From Candidatus Saccharimonadia bacterium (GTDB taxonomy: Bacteria; Patescibacteriota; Saccharimonadia; CAILAD01; CAZGYV01), in NCBI GenBank assembly GCA_041906885.1, contig JAYRII010000012.1, positions 94,955 through 158,954 on the forward strand: a DNA stretch of 64,000 bases, given 5' to 3'. Below, in pieces: positions 17,735 through 58,901 of the stretch (its first letter is position 1; each line of letters begins with the position of its first letter). The notes under the pieces are model-generated. The model had not been told where the DNA came from and did no database searches. It saw only the letters and a list, made by a program, of their open reading frames with translations. The translations under genes and the position numbers were made by a program.

Positions 17735-20392
17735 CTATTTTTCTACACGTTCATGTGGCTTAGCTGGTTGTCTGGCTTTATGGTGTTTTCTTTTGTGTCC
17801 AGCATCATTTGGAGAAGATTTTTTCAGTTGCTGACTATAGATTTTAGGCTCAATTCCAGAAATGTTTGGTTTTTGTACAACTGTAGGGATGAGTGGTTGT
17901 TCTCCTAGCTCTACCTGATTATCATCAGATTTTGATTGTTCGGCCTTAAATCCAGACCATTTAGATATTTCTGCCTCCACCTCGGACTTAGTTTTACTAT
18001 AGTGGGATCTAGATGTTTGAACGATACTATCTGTTAAATCCCTATGAGGTGCTGGCATCGGTAAAGTTTTAGCTGAAAACGGGATAGATGTTTGGCCATC
18101 AATACTCATCGAGACATAGATATTTTGTATGTTGAGGTTGACCAAGTCATTAGACTCAAATGTCGGTTCAAAATATTTAGTTAGGAAGGTGGCATCGGCT
18201 GCACCAATCCTAAAGCTAACCATCGAGCCGACATTACCAAAGACAGCTTCTCTAACCTCTTCGGGCATTTGCCCGACGTATTGGTTGGCAACAGTCAGGA
18301 ATAGTCCATACTTCCTGGCCTCACTTAGGATGACAGCGAACGATTCGGTGGCGAAGTTCTGGAATTCATCGACGTAAAGGTAAAATGATCGTCTCTCATC
18401 AAAGCTGATATTAGCCCTACTCATGGCTGCAAGTTGAATCTTGGTAATGACTAAAGCACCCAAGATCGAAGCATTGTCCTCGCCCAGTCTGCCGCGAGAT
18501 AAGTCGACAATCAGGATTTTACCTTGATCCATGATCTGGCGGATATCAAAGCTTGATTTAACTTGGCCAAGTACATTTCTAATGAGAGGATTGGCTGTGA
18601 AAGCCCCTACCTTATTGAGGACTGGTGCAACCGCTTCTGAGGCGAATTTATCATTCCAGCTAGCAAACTCATTCACCCAAAAAGCTTTTACCACCGGGTC
18701 AGTTACACTTCCTACGACCTGCTTACGGTACCCCTTATCGGTCAGCATGCGGGTGATGCCGAGCATGGTTGCATCCGGTGTCTCTAGGAGTGCTAAGAGT
18801 GTAAAACGCAAAATGTGTTCTAAACGCGGACCCCATGAGTCGGCAAACATTTTCTTTAACACGCCGACGATCTCCGAAGCAATCGAAGCTCGCATATTGG
18901 GATCGCTGTTTTCCATCGGGTTAAATGATATCGGAAAGTCTAAATCAGACGGGTTGAAATATATCACATCGTCAACCCGATGTTCGGGTATATATTTCAT
19001 GACATCCTGAGCATAGTCACCGTGCGGATCAACCACCGCGAAGCCGTGATCATGGTATATGTCTGACAAGGTTAATAGCTGGAGTAAAAATGATTTACCA
19101 ACACCCGACTTACCGATAATGTAGAGATGCCGTTTGCGGTCTTCTCTTTTGATGCCAAACTTGACATTCCCCTGTCTAAATGTAGTCGTACCAATTAAAC
19201 TAATATCCTCCGCTCTGGTATTTTCGCCCGTCGGTAAATTCGTCGGCGGCTCCCCTACTTTAGTGGTCGTCCAGGCTATATTTGGCGTCTCAACTGAGAT
19301 ATGTGGTAGGTGCCAGAGGCTAGCTAACTCTTCAATATTGAGAACGAAACCAGGATCGTCGAAAAGCCTAGCCCGGTATTCATCCAAGCTGTCAGGTTTA
19401 TTGTCTATCCCCTTACCGATAAAACCATTCAGGTTGATGGTATTAAATTGTTTAAAACCTCCGACCAATGCTTGCAGACGTTGTTTGGCTACATTCCCAT
19501 CGGTACCAATATAGGTTGTTCGTATTTTGACCGCATAGCCTAGCTTCTGGGCCTTAGTTTCGATGGCGGTGTTGACGGTGGTTTGGCCGGTTGGCAGTTC
19601 TTTCTTGTCCTCCTTCTTCTTATCCTCCGGCTTGGCCGGGCCAACGAAGGCAGCTTTGGCGAGCATGCCGAGTAGTCTAAATGGCAAGATTAAAATTTTC
19701 TTTTCCCAATTATCAAATAGATTAGTTCGACCGCCATTTTTGATCGATTCGATATAGCTATGCGATCGAGCGTGCCAACTGTCATCGACTGGTCTAATTA
19801 ATATCTGTAGCCACATTTCCTCACTACCTTCTAGAGTGGCAAGAGCGGTCGTAATGCCTGCGAGAGGGTCTACCTCAAAAGTAGGAAATGTTCGAATTGG
19901 AAAAATTTCATCTTTCGAGAGAGCTATTTCAGTCGTATAACCTTCTCGATCATTAAGGTCTTGCTTGGCATAATCATCATCCATCTGATTGATCTGGACT
20001 GTTGGATATTGAGCATAAATTTGGCTCTCAACGTAGCCTTTGAGTGCTTTGGGTAGCCAAACATAAAAATTTATCAGATTTTTTTCAGCTGCAATCTCAA
20101 AGCTAATATGGTCTTGCAGACTACCTTCTGAGGTAATCTGACTCTTGGGTTTTAAAATATTGTGCAAACTGGCAAATAACTGCTCGGCTGAAAGCTCTTT
20201 TTTTTCATTGTCCTTTGGTACGACAATATGCAGTATAATATGCTCACTACTGGTGACGTAGCGGACGCGCCGCCTGTTTTGCCAAATTTGCCAAGCAAAA
20301 TAAGCTGCTACAAGTGTCCAGCCCCAATATTTAAAGAGTACTGTACCTATTAATGACAGAATTAGTCCTAGTACGTTTAGAATTATGTCCAT
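17735..20392 (-). CDS. VirD4/TraG-like (type IV coupling protein-like) membrane ATPase of the HerA/FtsK/VirB4 superfamily
   Basis: two N-terminal TM helices, Walker A YIIGKSGVGKS, Walker B YLYVDEFQNF, ARKYG motif; 885 aa. Confidence 0.6.
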   Translation of the reverse strand: MDIILNVLGLILSLIGTVLFKYWGWTLVAAYFAWQIWQNRRRVRYVTSSEHIILHIVVPKDNEKKELSAEQLFASLHNILKPKSQITSEGSLQDHISFEIAAEKNLINFYVWLPKALKGYVESQIYAQYPTVQINQMDDDYAKQDLNDREGYTTEIALSKDEIFPIRTFPTFEVDPLAGITTALATLEGSEEMWLQILIRPVDDSWHARSHSYIESIKNGGRTNLFDNWEKKILILPFRLLGMLAKAAFVGPAKPEDKKKEDKKELPTGQTTVNTAIETKAQKLGYAVKIRTTYIGTDGNVAKQRLQALVGGFKQFNTINLNGFIGKGIDNKPDSLDEYRARLFDDPGFVLNIEELASLWHLPHISVETPNIAWTTTKVGEPPTNLPTGENTRAEDISLIGTTTFRQGNVKFGIKREDRKRHLYIIGKSGVGKSFLLQLLTLSDIYHDHGFAVVDPHGDYAQDVMKYIPEHRVDDVIYFNPSDLDFPISFNPMENSDPNMRASIASEIVGVLKKMFADSWGPRLEHILRFTLLALLETPDATMLGITRMLTDKGYRKQVVGSVTDPVVKAFWVNEFASWNDKFASEAVAPVLNKVGAFTANPLIRNVLGQVKSSFDIRQIMDQGKILIVDLSRGRLGEDNASILGALVITKIQLAAMSRANISFDERRSFYLYVDEFQNFATESFAVILSEARKYGLFLTVANQYVGQMPEEVREAVFGNVGSMVSFRIGAADATFLTKYFEPTFESNDLVNLNIQNIYVSMSIDGQTSIPFSAKTLPMPAPHRDLTDSIVQTSRSHYSKTKSEVEAEISKWSGFKAEQSKSDDNQVELGEQPLIPTVVQKPNISGIEPKIYSQQLKKSSPNDAGHKRKHHKARQPAKPHERVEK

Positions 20393-20454
20393 ATTATAGT
20401 TGCTTTTTTGCCCTCTCTATTGTCTAGATCGATGCTACTTACTTAAGTCAAACC

Positions 20455-21486
20455 TTAGCTTTGTTTGAGCTGATAAGTTGCTTTACTGATGCGTTCGAAT
20501 TGAGGCTTTTCTTGTAGGTTAAGTGCGATGGTTGTGACTTTTACCTGACGACGAGCTAATACCCGACGAACGATTTCGTCCTTTGTGAGCGGAGATTCTT
20601 CTTTCAATATACTCTCTATAATATCAGCAACAGTGCCGGCTTGGTAGCCCCATTCTGCTAAGGCGTATATGCCGCGTCCGATTAGGACAAATCTTTTATC
20701 CTTAATTAGTTCATTGTGGACGGCTTGCGTGGTGACTTTTTTGGGATTTGCTTCAACTTGACTAATTTTCTTTGCAATTTGAGAAAAATGCATCGGTTTG
20801 TGAGATTTATTTAAGACCAAATAAACTTTATCTCGAATACTTTTTGGATTAACTTCAGGCCATTGGGCTAAGCCCCACATCGAGTCTAACTCAGAGATGA
20901 GATTAGAACTAATCGCAAGCTGCCTTAATGCAGTTGATTTGTGCGGACCATCGATTTTTTTGGCGAAATTGTCAAAGACATCGGGTTGTCCATAGGTCTT
21001 GATGGCTGTTATTAGTTTTTCATGCAAAAGAGCAACATCACTTGGATTATACATCTCGCCCAATACCACAATTGTGTCATGGTTGTCATTTCGATCGATT
21101 AGATTAAATCCGGGATCTAGCTTGATTAGGAAGCTTAATTTGGCCTTATTATCAGGGTAAATCTTAAGTTTATTAGACAAATCTTCAAATGTAATAATAC
21201 CACCTTCATCGGTCAGAACTTCAGTAATTTTTTGATTGAGCTGGTTATTAAAGGACTGCTCTTTTTGGATCCGACTCATAGCCGCTTTCTCGATTTGGCG
21301 AACGCGTTCTCGGGTGATACCAAGTTGAGTTCCAATTTGCTCTAGCGTATAAGAATTAGCAACATCAATACCATGTCGCTTAATTAGAATATCCCGATCT
21401 CGATCCTTCTTGAGGTAGTTCAAAGAATCTTGAATCAGGTCATCTAAGTTTTCTAGCTGTTGTATTTGAGTAGTATTTTGCTGCAT
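20455..21486 (-). CDS. DNA-binding protein: sigma70 region 4 HTH followed by HARE-HTH-like winged-helix domains
   Basis: YTLEQIGTQLGITRERVRQIEKAAM (sigma r4.2-like); later GRGIYALAEWGY (HARE-HTH signature). Confidence 0.5.
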   Translation of the reverse strand: MQQNTTQIQQLENLDDLIQDSLNYLKKDRDRDILIKRHGIDVANSYTLEQIGTQLGITRERVRQIEKAAMSRIQKEQSFNNQLNQKITEVLTDEGGIITFEDLSNKLKIYPDNKAKLSFLIKLDPGFNLIDRNDNHDTIVVLGEMYNPSDVALLHEKLITAIKTYGQPDVFDNFAKKIDGPHKSTALRQLAISSNLISELDSMWGLAQWPEVNPKSIRDKVYLVLNKSHKPMHFSQIAKKISQVEANPKKVTTQAVHNELIKDKRFVLIGRGIYALAEWGYQAGTVADIIESILKEESPLTKDEIVRRVLARRQVKVTTIALNLQEKPQFERISKATYQLKQS

Positions 21487-23655: not shown

Positions 23656-24501
23656 CTATCTGATAATCCATGTGCCACCACCAATATTGCGGATCTTGCC
23701 TGTAATTTCCATCAGTGAAATCAGATGAGCAAACTGAGCTGCCTCCATGCCAGTTTGCTCGATGAGAGCTTGATTAGAGCTTACTCCACGATCAATTAAA
23801 CCAATGATAGTCTCCTCCTCAATAGAATCGGCTTTGATTGGCTTGGTGGTGAGCTTGGGGCTAACCAATCCGAGCTGGGTAAGGACATCAATACCACTCG
23901 TTACAGCGATCGCACCCATCTTAATTAGGTCATTTGGACCGCAGCTTCTGGGACTAAAAATATTACCAGGCACAGCCATAACCTGCCTATTTTCCTGCAA
24001 GGCAAAATTAGCAGTGATCAGCGAACCACTTTTACTCTCTGCCTCAGTTACAATTGTGGCTAGACTCATCCCGGCAATTATTCTATTGCGGGCAGGAAAA
24101 TGAGATTTAAATGGCTGCACACCAATGTCATATTCTGAGATGAGGCAGCCGCCACTAGCGACAATATTTTGAGCCAGAGGCTTATTGATTGAAGGATAGA
24201 TTGTATCCAACCCACATCCAAGTACAGCAATAGTCACGCCACCGGCATCGATGGCGGCCTGATGGGCAACCGCATCAATGCCAAGTGCTAGGCCGCTGAC
24301 AATTACCAGCCCAGCTTTTGCCAGGTCATGACTCAATCTATAGGTAGCTTGCTTGCCGTAATCGGACATCTTTCTGGTGCCAACGATTGCGACCATGGGT
24401 AAGTCAGGCAACTTCCCAACAATATGTAGCTCTTTCGGCGGCTGGGCAATTTCCGCTAAAAGCGATGGATATTGGTTGCTATTTTTACTAATACGTTTCA
24501 T
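23656..24501 (-). CDS. dprA: DNA processing protein DprA
   Basis: Rossmann-like VIVSGLALGIDAVAHQAA motif, 281 aa, adjacent to topA. Confidence 0.85.
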   Translation of the reverse strand: MKRISKNSNQYPSLLAEIAQPPKELHIVGKLPDLPMVAIVGTRKMSDYGKQATYRLSHDLAKAGLVIVSGLALGIDAVAHQAAIDAGGVTIAVLGCGLDTIYPSINKPLAQNIVASGGCLISEYDIGVQPFKSHFPARNRIIAGMSLATIVTEAESKSGSLITANFALQENRQVMAVPGNIFSPRSCGPNDLIKMGAIAVTSGIDVLTQLGLVSPKLTTKPIKADSIEEETIIGLIDRGVSSNQALIEQTGMEAAQFAHLISLMEITGKIRNIGGGTWIIR

Positions 24502-31580: not shown

Positions 31581-33302
31581 TTATTTGACTAGCGGCAGCG
31601 AAAAATTAAATTTGCTACCCTTGCCAACTTGGCTTTCGACCCAAATGCGCCCGCCATAGGTTTCGATTAAACTGCGAGCGATATAGAGGCCAAGCCCGGT
31701 ACCGCCGATCTCTCGAGTCATTGAGCTATTGACACGATAGAATTTTTGAAATAAATGTTTTTGGTCTTCAGCTGAAATTCCAGCACCGGTGTCAGCCACT
31801 GAGACAGTGACACTTTGCCGATTACCACTTAGATAGACATCAACCCCTCCTGTGGCGGTGTATTTGATCGCGTTATCAATCAAATTTGAAACCACCTCTC
31901 GAAGTCTTTCAGGGTCAGCACTGACCTTATATGTAGGGGCAAGTACTAATTGATTTTTCATGCTAGTCTCTCCGATATGGGTATGCAAGACTAAATTCTT
32001 GCGTTTAGCAATAATTTCCATTTCTGAGGCAATTTGAGTGATCAACTCGCTTAGATTAAAGACTTGTCGATTGTCTACTAATCGCTTATCTTCTATCTTG
32101 GTAACACTCAAGAGGTCTTGGAATAATTTGCCCAGATGCAAGGCAGAGTTATGTGCTTTTGAGATAAAGTTTCTTGCTCTCTCGTCGACTGTTGCTAAAT
32201 TAGGATTGATGGCCATTGATAGATAGCCCTCAATGGCTGCTACAGGAGTACGCATCTCGTGACTAGCAGTTGATACAAATTCATTACGCTCACGCTGAAC
32301 GGCTTTCTGCTCGGAGATATCATGAAATACAGCGACCGCACCTTCGATTTGTTGACGTATGTTATAGGTCGGTGCAATTGAGATTGAGAACGAGATTTTT
32401 TGATTGTTTTTATCGAGCATATAAAAATCATCTCTACTTGTGTGCTTGTTTTCTTTTAATACCATCATAAATGGATCGGTCAGATTATTGATTTCTTGGT
32501 CTTTAGCATCTTTTAGCTTAAAAATAGTATTGTATTGTATACCAAGAGCACTATTGATGTCCCAACCGGTCAGTCTCTCAGCTGCTTGATTAAATAATAC
32601 AATTTTAAGATTTTTATCAACACCAACTACAGCATCATCGATGGCACTCATCATGAGTTGTTCTTTAACTTCAGCTGTATCCAATTGGCTGATAAGCTTT
32701 TCGGCAATGCTAATATCTTTGCGGTAGTTATCAATTAGAATACTAATGACAAAACTGAGCGCGGTCGCAGTGACAGTTAAAATCCAGACTGTAATACTAC
32801 CGAGATGGTTGGTATGAGTGGTGAATGTGAGACCAGCTGCAATCAGGTAGTAAAGCAAAGTCAGTGTAGTAGCGAGAAAGCAAACGCGCCGTGATAGTAG
32901 GCCGGCAATAATTACGACCGTAAACCAGCGCACGAAATATTGGCTAGCCAATCCCCCATCGGCGAACGTTAAAATCATTAGAACTAAAGAGATAGTGAGC
33001 GCAACTGAAAAAACCGCCATTGGCCGGTCGCGAGATTTTAATTTAGGCCAAATTATTAAGTTGTAGATCAGTCCAATAACCGACAGTCCTATTGCAGAGA
33101 ATTTAATTATCAACGAATAACTGTTTAATTGACCTGTTTGAGGTAAAAATAGTACAGTTGCTATGACTGCAAGCTGGAGTACGGAAGAAATGTACATTAA
33201 CCAGTTGTTAAAACGTCGGTCAATACGAGAAACTCGCCACAGGTCACTTTCGGTATTGGGTGGATTTTTTATTTCTGCCGACTGATTGGTAGTTGGTACC
33301 AT
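31581..33302 (-). CDS. sensor histidine kinase (multi-TM N-terminus, PAS, HisKA, HATPase_c)
   Basis: H-box SHEMRTPV, N-box, G-boxes DTGAGIS and GGTGLGL. Confidence 0.85.
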   Translation of the reverse strand: MVPTTNQSAEIKNPPNTESDLWRVSRIDRRFNNWLMYISSVLQLAVIATVLFLPQTGQLNSYSLIIKFSAIGLSVIGLIYNLIIWPKLKSRDRPMAVFSVALTISLVLMILTFADGGLASQYFVRWFTVVIIAGLLSRRVCFLATTLTLLYYLIAAGLTFTTHTNHLGSITVWILTVTATALSFVISILIDNYRKDISIAEKLISQLDTAEVKEQLMMSAIDDAVVGVDKNLKIVLFNQAAERLTGWDINSALGIQYNTIFKLKDAKDQEINNLTDPFMMVLKENKHTSRDDFYMLDKNNQKISFSISIAPTYNIRQQIEGAVAVFHDISEQKAVQRERNEFVSTASHEMRTPVAAIEGYLSMAINPNLATVDERARNFISKAHNSALHLGKLFQDLLSVTKIEDKRLVDNRQVFNLSELITQIASEMEIIAKRKNLVLHTHIGETSMKNQLVLAPTYKVSADPERLREVVSNLIDNAIKYTATGGVDVYLSGNRQSVTVSVADTGAGISAEDQKHLFQKFYRVNSSMTREIGGTGLGLYIARSLIETYGGRIWVESQVGKGSKFNFSLPLVK

Positions 33303-33501
33303 ATATTTAATATTGTAGCATAAACAATTACATCAAAAGCTTAATAATAACTTAAGTTAGTGCGTCAATATCTAGTAGTACTTATATCTGTGGCGGCTGG
33401 ACAAAATAGTTGAATTATAGCTCAACTGCTTTGTGGGCCGCCACCCGACCTTAAGGCCGGGTAGCGTGAACCAACTTTGTCTCGTCTAACGAAAAATTTG
33501 G

Positions 33502-33615
33502 TTATTGGTCGTTTTTACGCAGGGCCGCGATCATGGCAGCAAGACCGATACATACCCCCACAAAGGAGTATGCAATTGTGGCAACCACCAACTTGTCATA
33601 AATCCGCTTCTTCAT
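33502..33615 (-). CDS. candidate 37-aa hydrophobic peptide (MKKRIYDKLVVATIAYSFVGVCIGLAAMIAALRKNDQ)
   Basis: GGAG RBS 7 nt upstream of ATG; single TM; not in ORF track because <60 aa. Confidence 0.3.
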   Translation of the reverse strand: MKKRIYDKLVVATIAYSFVGVCIGLAAMIAALRKNDQ

Positions 33616-33671
33616 TATTATCTCCATTTTTATTTGGTCATGCAGTATCCCTTACAGATACAAATGTACTA

Positions 33672-33700
33672 AAAAACCATCTTACCAATCAGATGGCTTT
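33672..33700. terminator. bidirectional intrinsic terminator AAAAAA-CCATCT-taccaatc-AGATGG-CTTTT
   Basis: 6-bp stem flanked by A-run and T-run. Confidence 0.45.
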
Positions 33701-33746
33701 TAAGACCTACTATCTAACAAATGGTGCATATTGGCAATAATTTTCT

Positions 33747-33908
33747 TGGTGATCCCACGGGGAGTGTAGCTACGCTACGTGCATTCGCAGTGCTCGATCC
33801 GCCCGGTGGCGGATTCTGTGCTCTGCTCATTGGCACCCGCCCCATGGGTTCGAGATATCTCACGATATCAACCATGAAAAATGCCCACCTTGCGGTGAGC
33901 TTCTTTCA
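33747..33908 (-). repeat. ~140-nt element downstream of tRNA-Glu ending in a 19-nt direct repeat (TGGTGATCCCACGGGGAGT, plus-strand 33747..33765) of the tRNA 3' end
   Basis: exact 19-nt duplication of 33909..33927; internal hairpins; homologous to element after tRNA-Leu. Confidence 0.55.
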
Positions 33909-33983
33909 TGGTGATCCCACGGGGAGTCGAACCCCGGTTACCAGGATGAGAACCTGGCGTCCTAACCACTAGACGATGGGACC
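33909..33983 (-). tRNA. tRNA-Glu (anticodon CUC), 75 nt with encoded CCA
   Basis: cloverleaf folded by eye: acceptor GGUCCCA/UGGGAUC, D-stem GUCU/GGAC, anticodon stem CCAGG/CCUGG loop UUCUCAU, T-arm CGGGG-UUCGACU-CCCCG. Confidence 0.9.
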
Positions 33984-57755: not shown

Positions 57756-57842
57756 GCCAGAGTGGTGGAATTGGTATACACGCATGACTCAAAATCATGT
57801 GGAGCTTGCTCCTTGTGGGTTCGAGTCCCACCTCTGGTACCA
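57756..57842 (+). tRNA. tRNA-Leu (anticodon CAA), 87 nt with long variable arm and encoded CCA
   Basis: acceptor GCCAGAG/CUCUGGU, anticodon stem CAUGA/UCAUG loop CUCAAAA, variable arm GGAGCUUGCUCC, T-arm GUGGG-UUCGAGU-CCCAC. Confidence 0.9.
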
Positions 57843-58010
57843 ACTAAAGCTCGCACGCCAGTGGGGGCTTTAGTTGGTATTTGGCGAGAACCCAAGGTTC
57901 GGTGAAGCAGAGCGCGCAGGCCAAAAGTCAAATTAATTTGATCTTTTACCGAGCACTTTGCGGAGGTCGCGTCAGCGACAGTCCCACCTCTGGTACCAAC
58001 TAAAGCTCGC
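57843..58010 (+). repeat. ~130-nt element after tRNA-Leu ending in 30-nt direct repeat (GTCCCACCTCTGGTACCAACTAAAGCTCGC, 57981..58010) of the tRNA 3' end + trailer (57825..57854)
   Basis: exact 30-nt duplication; ~75% similar to the tRNA-Glu-associated element over much of its length. Confidence 0.55.
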
Positions 58011-58034
58011 GCGTTAGACTGCAAGGTAGTTTTT

Positions 58035-58901
58035 TTAATTTTCACGATTGATTTCCATTTTGATATTATCAATTAAAGATACTGCGTCATGATGATAAGC
58101 TGATGTTACCTTAAAGATATATCCGGCTGTCATGGCTCGTTTAAAGAAATTTATATTTTTACTGCTAGAATCAGCTAGTAAGCCAGACATGAGCCCCAAT
58201 AAAACGCCTCTGCGAGCTAAAATATCAACATTGTTAGTGTCTACAATACCCATTACATCATCTCGACTGCAAACTAAAATTTGCTCCTTGTCATAAACAA
58301 TAAAGTCACTTTTGAATTTGCCTTGGAGCTCTTTAATTATATCAATTTTATTAAATACACCCCTGTCAGGACGAATCGAGACACCGATTTTTTGGTAGTT
58401 CGCTAGGTCGATCAGGCCATGTGAGCTAATTAGAAAAATCGTATTCGTGCGGTGAAATACTGTTGGGTTAAGCCTGGCCAGCCGTAGAGCCTCATCGGTA
58501 ATAATGACAGGTGAAGTACAATTTTCGAACATATAATCACAAGCGATTTGATTAGTACTATTTTGTGGCAGAAAAGGCGCCAGAACCAACAAATTAGCAT
58601 CGTCTAGCTGTGACTTTAAGATGGCTTTATTGATTTGGCCAGCTGATTGTAGCTCAATACAGGCCTTAGCCGGTACCTTGACCCCTAATTTCGATAAACC
58701 GCTTGGCACTATTAGCTCAGGATAGGCATCTAAAGCACTTAAAATCTGATAGGCTGTATCCAAATTATTTAAGCTACCAACTTCGCCACCGACTATCAAC
58801 ACAACTGGTTTGAGCATAGGGTTGATTGGCTTATCAAACAGAACCTCTGGATAAAGCATATCGCCTTTTTGATGAATAATTTTTTGACTACTAGATGACA
58901 A
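58035..58901 (-). CDS. hypothetical protein, possibly degenerate YjeF_C/carbohydrate-kinase-like fold
   Basis: weak resemblance VVLIVGGEVGS / GVLLGLMSGLLA to NAD(P)HX dehydratase motifs; true start probably internal. Confidence 0.3.
   Translation of the reverse strand: MSSSSQKIIHQKGDMLYPEVLFDKPINPMLKPVVLIVGGEVGSLNNLDTAYQILSALDAYPELIVPSGLSKLGVKVPAKACIELQSAGQINKAILKSQLDDANLLVLAPFLPQNSTNQIACDYMFENCTSPVIITDEALRLARLNPTVFHRTNTIFLISSHGLIDLANYQKIGVSIRPDRGVFNKIDIIKELQGKFKSDFIVYDKEQILVCSRDDVMGIVDTNNVDILARRGVLLGLMSGLLADSSSKNINFFKRAMTAGYIFKVTSAYHHDAVSLIDNIKMEINREN

Follow-up and report, generated by a model that had tools for sequence, protein, structure and literature searches.

Tyrosine integrases reportedly use a T-loop sublocation of tRNA genes, described by Williams in 2002 for P4-type islands, and the direct repeats left by such integration are said to start in the T-loop. 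In the tycheposons of Prochlorococcus, successive integrations at one tRNA gene give rise to tandem arrays (10.1101/2020.12.28.424599). Here we describe two short inserts located directly behind tRNA-Leu(CAA) and tRNA-Glu(CTC) in a Saccharibacteria (Patescibacteria) genome, within a stretch of 64,000 nucleotides of contig JAYRII010000012.1 that is referred to in its entirety as the window. Each insert, or unit, resembles the T-loop-targeting integrative elements, tycheposons included, in its flanking direct repeat of the tRNA 3' end, in the regeneration of the tRNA by the copy which the element carries, in empty sites with a single repeat copy and in arrays split by partial tRNAs. Unlike these elements, the units are only approximately 160 bp long, non-coding and without an integrase or any other gene, they contain covarying hairpins in their core, they bring a terminator hairpin which pairs with the CCA end, and their identity with the tRNA runs from position 58/59 rather than over the whole T-loop. 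We propose, with a probability of about 0.55, that both inserts are miniature non-autonomous integrative elements which target tRNA 3' ends and are moved in trans; this family of non-coding elements of approximately 156–166 bp in Saccharibacteria is apparently undescribed.

The tRNA-Leu(CAA) gene (57756–57842, forward strand) was intact with its CCA encoded (ARAGORN; Rfam tRNA, 57.8 bits). A repeat search located the direct repeat AGTCCCACCTCTGGTACCAACTAAAGCTCGC at 57824–57854 (proximal copy) and, 156 bp further on, at 57980–58010 (distal copy); it is exact over 31 nt and reaches 34 nt if one mismatch is allowed. The repeat is made up of tRNA positions 58–76 (A58 to A76, 19 nt including CCA) and 12 nt of trailer, with 125 nt between the two copies. 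An earlier note on this DNA, made from the sequence alone, is confirmed in its description of the repeat, including spacing and trailer, with the single correction that the tRNA part is 19 nt instead of 18. The unit itself covers 156 nt (57843–57998, forward strand) and consists of a hairpin H0, a linker, a core, a hairpin P4 and the tRNA-end copy. H0 (57838–57879, forward strand) has a 5' arm that begins with the UACCA end of the tRNA and is an inverted repeat with 19-nt arms that are 89% complementary; it was matched by the terminator scan on the tRNA strand, folded at -31.1 kcal/mol in sense vs -22.1 kcal/mol in antisense orientation, and is homologous to the native tRNA-Leu terminator of a relative (L253). 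Following the linker, also on the forward strand, are the small hairpin H2, GAACC-CAA-GGTTC (57888–57900), seen in folds and pair counts and with a stem that is invariant in most unit types; the long hairpin P3/H3 (57907–57961), supported by shared motifs and covariation, whose internal loop is flanked by the conserved motifs AGCAGAGCGC and CGAGCAC; and P4, GTCGC-GTCA-GCGAC (57966–57979), which lies immediately 5' of the tRNA-end copy and has a stem that covaries across types. The distal repeat corresponds to the displaced tRNA 3' end with its trailer and is followed by the native trailer (58011–58034, forward strand), which is kept in an empty allele of the same species (L001, see below) and is orthologous to the tRNA-Leu terminator region of L253.

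The only other tRNA gene detected in the window by ARAGORN and Rfam was the intact tRNA-Glu(CTC) (33909–33983, reverse strand), and a comparable unit was found behind it on the same strand. In this case the repeat is 24 nt long with one mismatch and a spacing of 162 bp; the proximal copy (33904–33927) comprises tRNA positions 58–76 and 5 nt, and the distal copy lies at 33742–33765. The single 162-nt unit (33747–33908) is a divergent member of the family. Its H0 (33871–33912), located by repeat and terminator scans and folds, has a GC stem, a GCAA loop and a U run, takes in the ACCA end of the tRNA and is likewise similar to an intrinsic terminator.

The two inserts are homologous. Within the window the motif pair AGCAGAGC...CGAGCACT occurred only in the Leu and Glu inserts, and none of 100 shuffled versions of the window contained it. 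The covariance model R2, for which Leu, Arg and Val copies were used and the Glu copy was left out, recovered the Glu insert at full length as the best non-self match in the window (core at 33758–33854, reverse strand; 19.9 bits, E 0.007, where E-values of the models built here are rough), and the model R1 gave 38.2 bits for the same core. Each insert carries the 3' end of its own tRNA, in both cases from the same T-loop position, A58. The resemblance of the two inserts noticed earlier is thus above background, and the idea that each insert regenerates the 3' end of its own host tRNA has held up.

Comparison with other contigs demonstrated that the units are insertions. One Logan contig from the window species (L001), whose flanks are 100% identical, carries a single copy of the repeat and lacks exactly 156 bp, while running from the gene for a 288-aa protein through tRNA-Leu into the sortase gene. 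The remaining contigs of the window species stop or start exactly at the 31-mer (L061–L064 at window position 57980, L192–L201 at 57853). The Leu repeat has the same length, 31, as the k-mer of the Logan assemblies, and because a k=31 graph breaks where a 31-mer is present twice, a contig break at this site marks the filled allele. Collapse of the repeat during assembly was considered for L001 and is unlikely, as contigs from this assembler end at the 31-mer wherever the repeat exists; the uninterrupted contig is therefore a true empty allele. In related species with 62–74% protein identity to the window species, the tRNA-Leu site was also empty (L202, L253, L254 and L257), with an identical or nearly identical tRNA gene followed only by a short native trailer and with synteny kept. 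At the second locus, the Glu unit was identical in four contigs (L002, L003, L007 and L010) and missing from three relatives (L065, L067 and L069), in which tRNA-Glu is identical and has no insert. The trailer and terminator which follow tRNA-Glu directly in L065 align with the window sequence beyond the distal Glu repeat (AAGCCATCTG...AGATGGTTTTTT, 33655–33741, reverse strand), and therefore the ancestral trailer now sits behind the insert. The unit is thereby shown to be an insertion which is polymorphic both within the species and between species.

A larger version of the insert was found at tRNA-Leu in L204 and L205, where the sortase is 73% identical to that of the window. In these contigs 2.07 kb lie between the tRNA-Leu end and a 19-nt repeat of the tRNA 3' end; immediately behind the tRNA comes the hairpin stem ACCAACTAAAGC/GCTTTAGTTGGT known from the window, and a core of approximately 120 nt, about 90% identical to window positions 57867–57979, lies directly 5' of the distal repeat. 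The 156-bp insert of the window thus corresponds to both ends of such an island without its cargo, which indicates that units can be the ends of a larger island. Within this cargo version (L204, 7789–9857) lie one gene for a short-chain dehydrogenase and one for an aldo-keto reductase, the latter split into two open reading frames; no integrase was found in the 2-kb cargo of L204 or L205. A 15-nt string, GAGCTTTAGTTGGTA, is present at two places in the L204 version, behind the H0 loop and ahead of the core.

Further members of the family were identified by a motif-pattern scan of a metagenome collection; the numbers of copies and loci given here are lower bounds. The scan returned 44 matches, of which seven were real, and all seven lay directly behind tRNA-Arg(CCT) (L215, L216, L220, L229 and L248) or tRNA-Val(TAC) (L234 and L239). 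Units are thereby shown at four or more different tRNAs, always with the end of the tRNA that they follow. Twelve copies of seven types now share one architecture and a size of 156–166 nt. The common order is the CCA end of the tRNA; H0, with a 5' arm that begins at the (N)CCA end; the linker; H2 (GAACC-loop-GGTTC); GG.G; P3/H3, which in the core stands between the motifs GGTTCGG..AG.AAAGCGC.CAG and CGAGCAC; P4; and finally 17–19 nt copied from the host tRNA, starting at position 58/59 and ending with CCA for all four tRNAs (Leu, Glu, Arg and Val). The length of the duplicated segment varied from 19 to more than 31 nt among the repeats compared. Full-length tRNAs were detected by ARAGORN and Rfam at all loci, and every tRNA with a unit is intact and then followed by the terminator-like H0.

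Several of these loci contained tandem arrays. In L248 (645–1300) units of types 1, 2 and 3 follow one another and are succeeded by a partial fourth unit, and in L229 (1063–1460) two of the L248 types are present in the reverse order, 2-1. L216 and L234 each have one unit and one partial unit. The distal partial units retain the left part alone, that is H0 with or without the linker. No units were present at further tRNAs within these metagenome loci. The type 1 unit was 98.9% identical between L248 and L229, while the flanking genes of these contigs were 68–78% identical at the DNA level, so that the units have spread between genomes faster than their flanks diverged, unless very strong constraint keeps them alike. 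Arg type 1 and Val units have cores that are approximately 90% alike, and their P4, tRNA copy, H0 and linker are unrelated; gene conversion among co-resident units, or an exchange of modules, would explain alike cores with unrelated ends.

Other collections gave negative results. A strict three-motif scan of genome contigs returned 49 matches, which is close to chance expectation; these came from unrelated, mostly GC-rich organisms and none lay beside a tRNA 3' end. Motif-pattern scans of viral contigs identified no real family member, covariance-model searches of 100 of the 120 pattern-matched viral loci (0.8 Mb), used as a negative control, gave no significant match, nor did three further viral loci, and blastn of both inserts against a phage collection gave no match.

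Both inserts of the window folded far better than shuffled sequences (z-scores of -3.8 for the Leu unit and -6.8 for the Glu unit), and independent minimum-energy folds of all types agreed on H0 followed by a four-way layout in which H2, P3/H3 and P4 join a closing pairing between UGGUA and UACCA, the latter with variable additions. In the alignment of H2, P3, H3 and P4, 92–93% of the cells were paired, vs 84% after shuffling and 21–46% in slid controls, and nine pairs were changed on both sides; this covariation rests on seven unit types and is therefore of limited power. In P3/H3, 3 of 8 and 4–6 of 9–11 pairs were changed on both sides, and the P4 stem covaries across types (GUAGC/GCUAC, GGC/GCC, GUCCGCC/GGCGGAC). 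These covarying hairpins suggest that a single strand, either RNA or DNA, matters. With regard to strand, the H0 trailer hairpin, which belongs to the unit, is terminator-like on the tRNA strand, where it gained 6–9 kcal/mol in stability over the opposite strand for five of the seven types. In the core, A.C cells outnumber G.U cells, and P3 contains an invariant C.A mismatch (AAAG-C-GC/GC-A-CUUU; window 57912–57914 with 57954–57956, with equivalents in all units) which becomes a U.G wobble on the strand opposite the tRNA, where the core was slightly more stable in 10 of 12 copies. Promoter scans identified no consistent promoter-like site within the units on either strand. Searches of the inserts against Rfam at E up to 10 returned nothing credible, the only matches being the tRNAs at gathering score and chance microRNA-like hairpin matches.

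Two structural interpretations were tried and rejected. One took GGTTCG in the core for what is left of a T-arm, so that the unit would be a T-loop intron within a partial tRNA copy; in Leu and Arg type 3, the five bases preceding TTCG fail to pair with the 3' strand of the T-stem, and TTCG is absent from the Glu unit. A closing helix between linker and tRNA copy which would track the identity of the tRNA was inconsistent among types: the cognate tRNA came out clearly ahead for Glu and for Arg type 3, by a narrow margin for Arg type 2, and not at all for Leu, Arg type 1 or Val.

The tRNA 3' end forms the repeats, the tRNA is regenerated, empty sites are precise, units stand in tandem with partial tRNAs between them and one version carries cargo; taken together, this is the signature of site-specific T-loop integration. 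In the mechanism we propose, the unit, which would probably take the form of a small circular molecule or of a single strand folded on itself, would recombine with the tRNA gene through its own copy of the tRNA end. A site-specific recombinase with its gene elsewhere would drive this step, and a tyrosine recombinase, the type at work in classical T-loop integration, is the most likely one. The copy brought in would become the new working 3' end of the tRNA and bring the H0 terminator with it, the old 3' end would be displaced downstream as the distal repeat, later arrivals would push earlier units outward to form arrays, and the conserved folded core would be the part recognized by the trans-acting machinery. 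A candidate, and only a candidate, for mobilization in trans is a Xer-like tyrosine recombinase (Phage_integrase with a SAM-like N-terminal domain) encoded in L248 (7633–8547) and L229 (6715–7977), approximately 7 kb from the tRNA-Arg arrays in a conserved core context beside mnmG.

Several points weigh against this mechanism. No integrase, transposase or reverse transcriptase was found in or beside any copy at the loci examined. An autonomous relative with the same core was not found in the viral contigs or the phage collection, the genome and metagenome collections being covered by one motif-pattern scan each. P4, which lies to the left of the repeat within the unit, does not mirror the T-stem and so a symmetric core site is not evident, and the covariation of H3 and P4 points to a single-stranded structure (RNA or single-stranded DNA), which is unexpected for an ordinary attP arm. 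The polymorphism within the species, taken alone, could also be explained by transformation and homologous recombination or by deletion between the repeats.

Set against the expectations of the earlier note, the similarity of the two inserts above background, the additional copies beside two more tRNAs (Arg-CCT and Val-TAC, in tandem arrays) and the empty sites in the same species and in relatives at both loci all favour the tRNA-targeting mini-element family which it had put forward. Its alternative, that the inserts are attP-arm remnants of related integrative elements, has become less likely given the narrow size range, the seven types and a normal form of approximately 160 bp, yet the 2-kb version in L204 does show units as island ends.

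In its fuller form this alternative would make the units what decay has left of larger integrative elements or of prophages, namely attL and attR with their arms once integrase and cargo had been lost. The cargo of 2 kb between the same ends in L204/L205 and the partial units at the distal ends of arrays fit such decay. Independent deletions, however, would not converge on a single 160-bp size, and this explanation is improbable because twelve copies of seven types fall within 156–166 nt with one architecture; tandem arrays of minimal units, the near identity of type 1 across genomes with diverged flanks, the covarying helices and the lack of an integrase even in the cargo version also speak against it. 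More weight is due to the view that the unit is mainly a structured non-coding RNA gene whose mobility is secondary, which we regard as unlikely though the foremost of the alternatives. On the tRNA strand such an RNA would mimic the 3' end of a tRNA and be handled by the enzymes of tRNA 3'-end processing, and on the opposite strand its 5' part would be complementary to the last 19 nt of the tRNA and might act on tRNA maturation, stability or defence. It would account for the paired cells and nine double changes in the helices, the strong folds, the same four-way layout in all types and the conservation of single-stranded motifs, as well as for the invariant C.A mismatch that becomes an antisense U.G wobble and the slightly more stable antisense core. 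Nevertheless, the core lies behind a terminator-like hairpin with no promoter-like site inside the unit, there is no Rfam match, pairing between linker and tRNA copy is not consistently best with the cognate tRNA, and precise insertions and arrays are left unexplained. A related proposal, which we consider doubtful, holds that the unit is a new kind of mobile module without a protein, active as RNA or bottom-strand DNA in the shape of a single folded strand, its address being a copy of the last 19 nt of the tRNA between two hairpins; it would pair with the tRNA gene or the tRNA (with the 3' end as primer or guide, for example) and then be copied or recombined in by host enzymes or another recombinase. 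The 58/59 boundary, the covarying hairpins and the antisense wobble would then all be parts of the mechanism.

The 58/59 boundary also invites comparison with retroelements. In retroviruses, the stop of the polymerase at modified A58 sets the 18-nt primer-binding site, and a retro-type mobility in which the tRNA served as primer or template would produce copied segments ending at the same place. The repeat does begin at position 58/59 in all four tRNAs and always continues through CCA, the unit is highly structured, and position 58 is A, T or C, or nucleotide 59 is missing, in otherwise near-identical units. We nevertheless consider this very unlikely: no reverse transcriptase was found in the window or at the loci examined, CCA is genome-encoded and so not diagnostic, H0 resembles a native gene terminator and fits an exchange at the DNA level, and T-loop integration by tyrosine integrases is said also to yield repeats which start in the T-loop. 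Group II introns, moreover, have not been detected in Patescibacteria (PMC13011429), which counts further against it. Equally improbable is that no dedicated machinery exists and that whole loci are spread by natural transformation and homologous recombination, with arrays and empty sites produced by unequal crossing-over or slippage between the 17–31-nt repeats. Saccharibacteria have competence genes, DprA and RecO are encoded in the window and the repeats are long enough for RecA-independent deletion; this explanation does not account, however, for homologous cores behind four tRNAs, each with the right tRNA end, or for differing unit types in differing orders at one tRNA.

If the units are indeed miniature elements mobilized in trans, they have partial counterparts among other described systems. 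The cis-mobilizable elements (CIMEs) of streptococcal integrative and conjugative elements (ICEs) are likewise non-autonomous DNA between attachment sites which depends on a recombinase in trans, as is proposed for the units, but CIMEs are kilobase-sized deletion derivatives of a known ICE which shares the site, whereas in the units the minimal form itself is conserved and structured and no parent is known. Miniature transposable elements with inverted repeats (MITEs), REPINs (repetitive extragenic palindromic doublets forming hairpins) and other miniature bacterial repeats are also small, non-coding, hairpin-rich, multi-copy and trans-mobilized, the last again only proposed for the units. In contrast to MITEs, the units have neither terminal inverted repeats (H0 5' arm compared with P4 or the tRNA copy) nor a short fixed target duplication, and they differ from both MITEs and REPINs in being strictly specific for one tRNA 3' end per type, with a duplication of 17–31 nt or more which restores a gene. 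The attC sites of integrons and attP(+) of the CTX phage have hairpins conserved in structure over sequence, and in the predicted folds the units may share this property, a resemblance that is structural only; in the models, the tRNA-end copy, H0 and linker can form a long imperfect hairpin which would make the target double-stranded. The targets of the units are tRNA genes, however, rather than attI or dif, and there is no IntI. Lastly, anticodon-loop introns of tRNA genes occur in the same phylum and are structured, RNA-like inserts at tRNA genes, but they interrupt the gene, whereas the units lie behind an uninterrupted tRNA and gave no group I model match.

Saccharibacteria and other Patescibacteria have tiny genomes in which few mobile elements have been recognized, and here inserts of 160 bases without a gene rebuild the end of an essential tRNA gene, stack in arrays and appear to move between species. 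Should a trans-acting recombinase recognize the folded core, the unit would amount to a minimal integration module that is retargeted by nature, each tRNA having its own address; it would help to understand how plastic the genomes of these episymbionts are and could perhaps be turned into a compact tool for site-specific insertion. A core that worked as RNA or single-stranded DNA would imply a new mechanism. The units also explain recurring breaks of metagenome contigs behind tRNA genes and can serve as strain-level markers.

The genes neighbouring the inserts are core genes of a Saccharibacteria genome; they include sortase, PEGA, MurA, MreB and DUF3048 as well as the division and cell wall (dcw) cluster, topoisomerase I, DprA and RecO. 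The source labels of homologues to the window genes were Saccharibacteria or Patescibacteria. No integrase, transposase or reverse transcriptase gene was found in the 64-kb window. In one relative a gene for a 277-aa DUF4357 protein (L067, 8978–9811; also L068, 8290–9123) lies 12 nt 3' of tRNA-Glu, without a tRNA-end repeat. Unrelated DNA, too, has its insertion hot spot in the 3' flank of this tRNA. Between the histidine kinase gene and tRNA-Glu, relatives carry a cytidylate kinase gene (L065, 8947–9738; L067, 8030–8794; L069, 8880–9674) which the window species lacks at 33302–33742, a 37-aa open reading frame (33506–33619, reverse strand) being all that remains. Elsewhere in the window (17735–21486, reverse strand), the gene for an 885-aa HerA/TrwB-like ATPase adjoins those for a protein with sigma-70 region 4 and HARE-HTH domains and for topoisomerase I. 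This neighbourhood and the DprA gene at 23656–24501 possibly have functions in DNA uptake or transfer.

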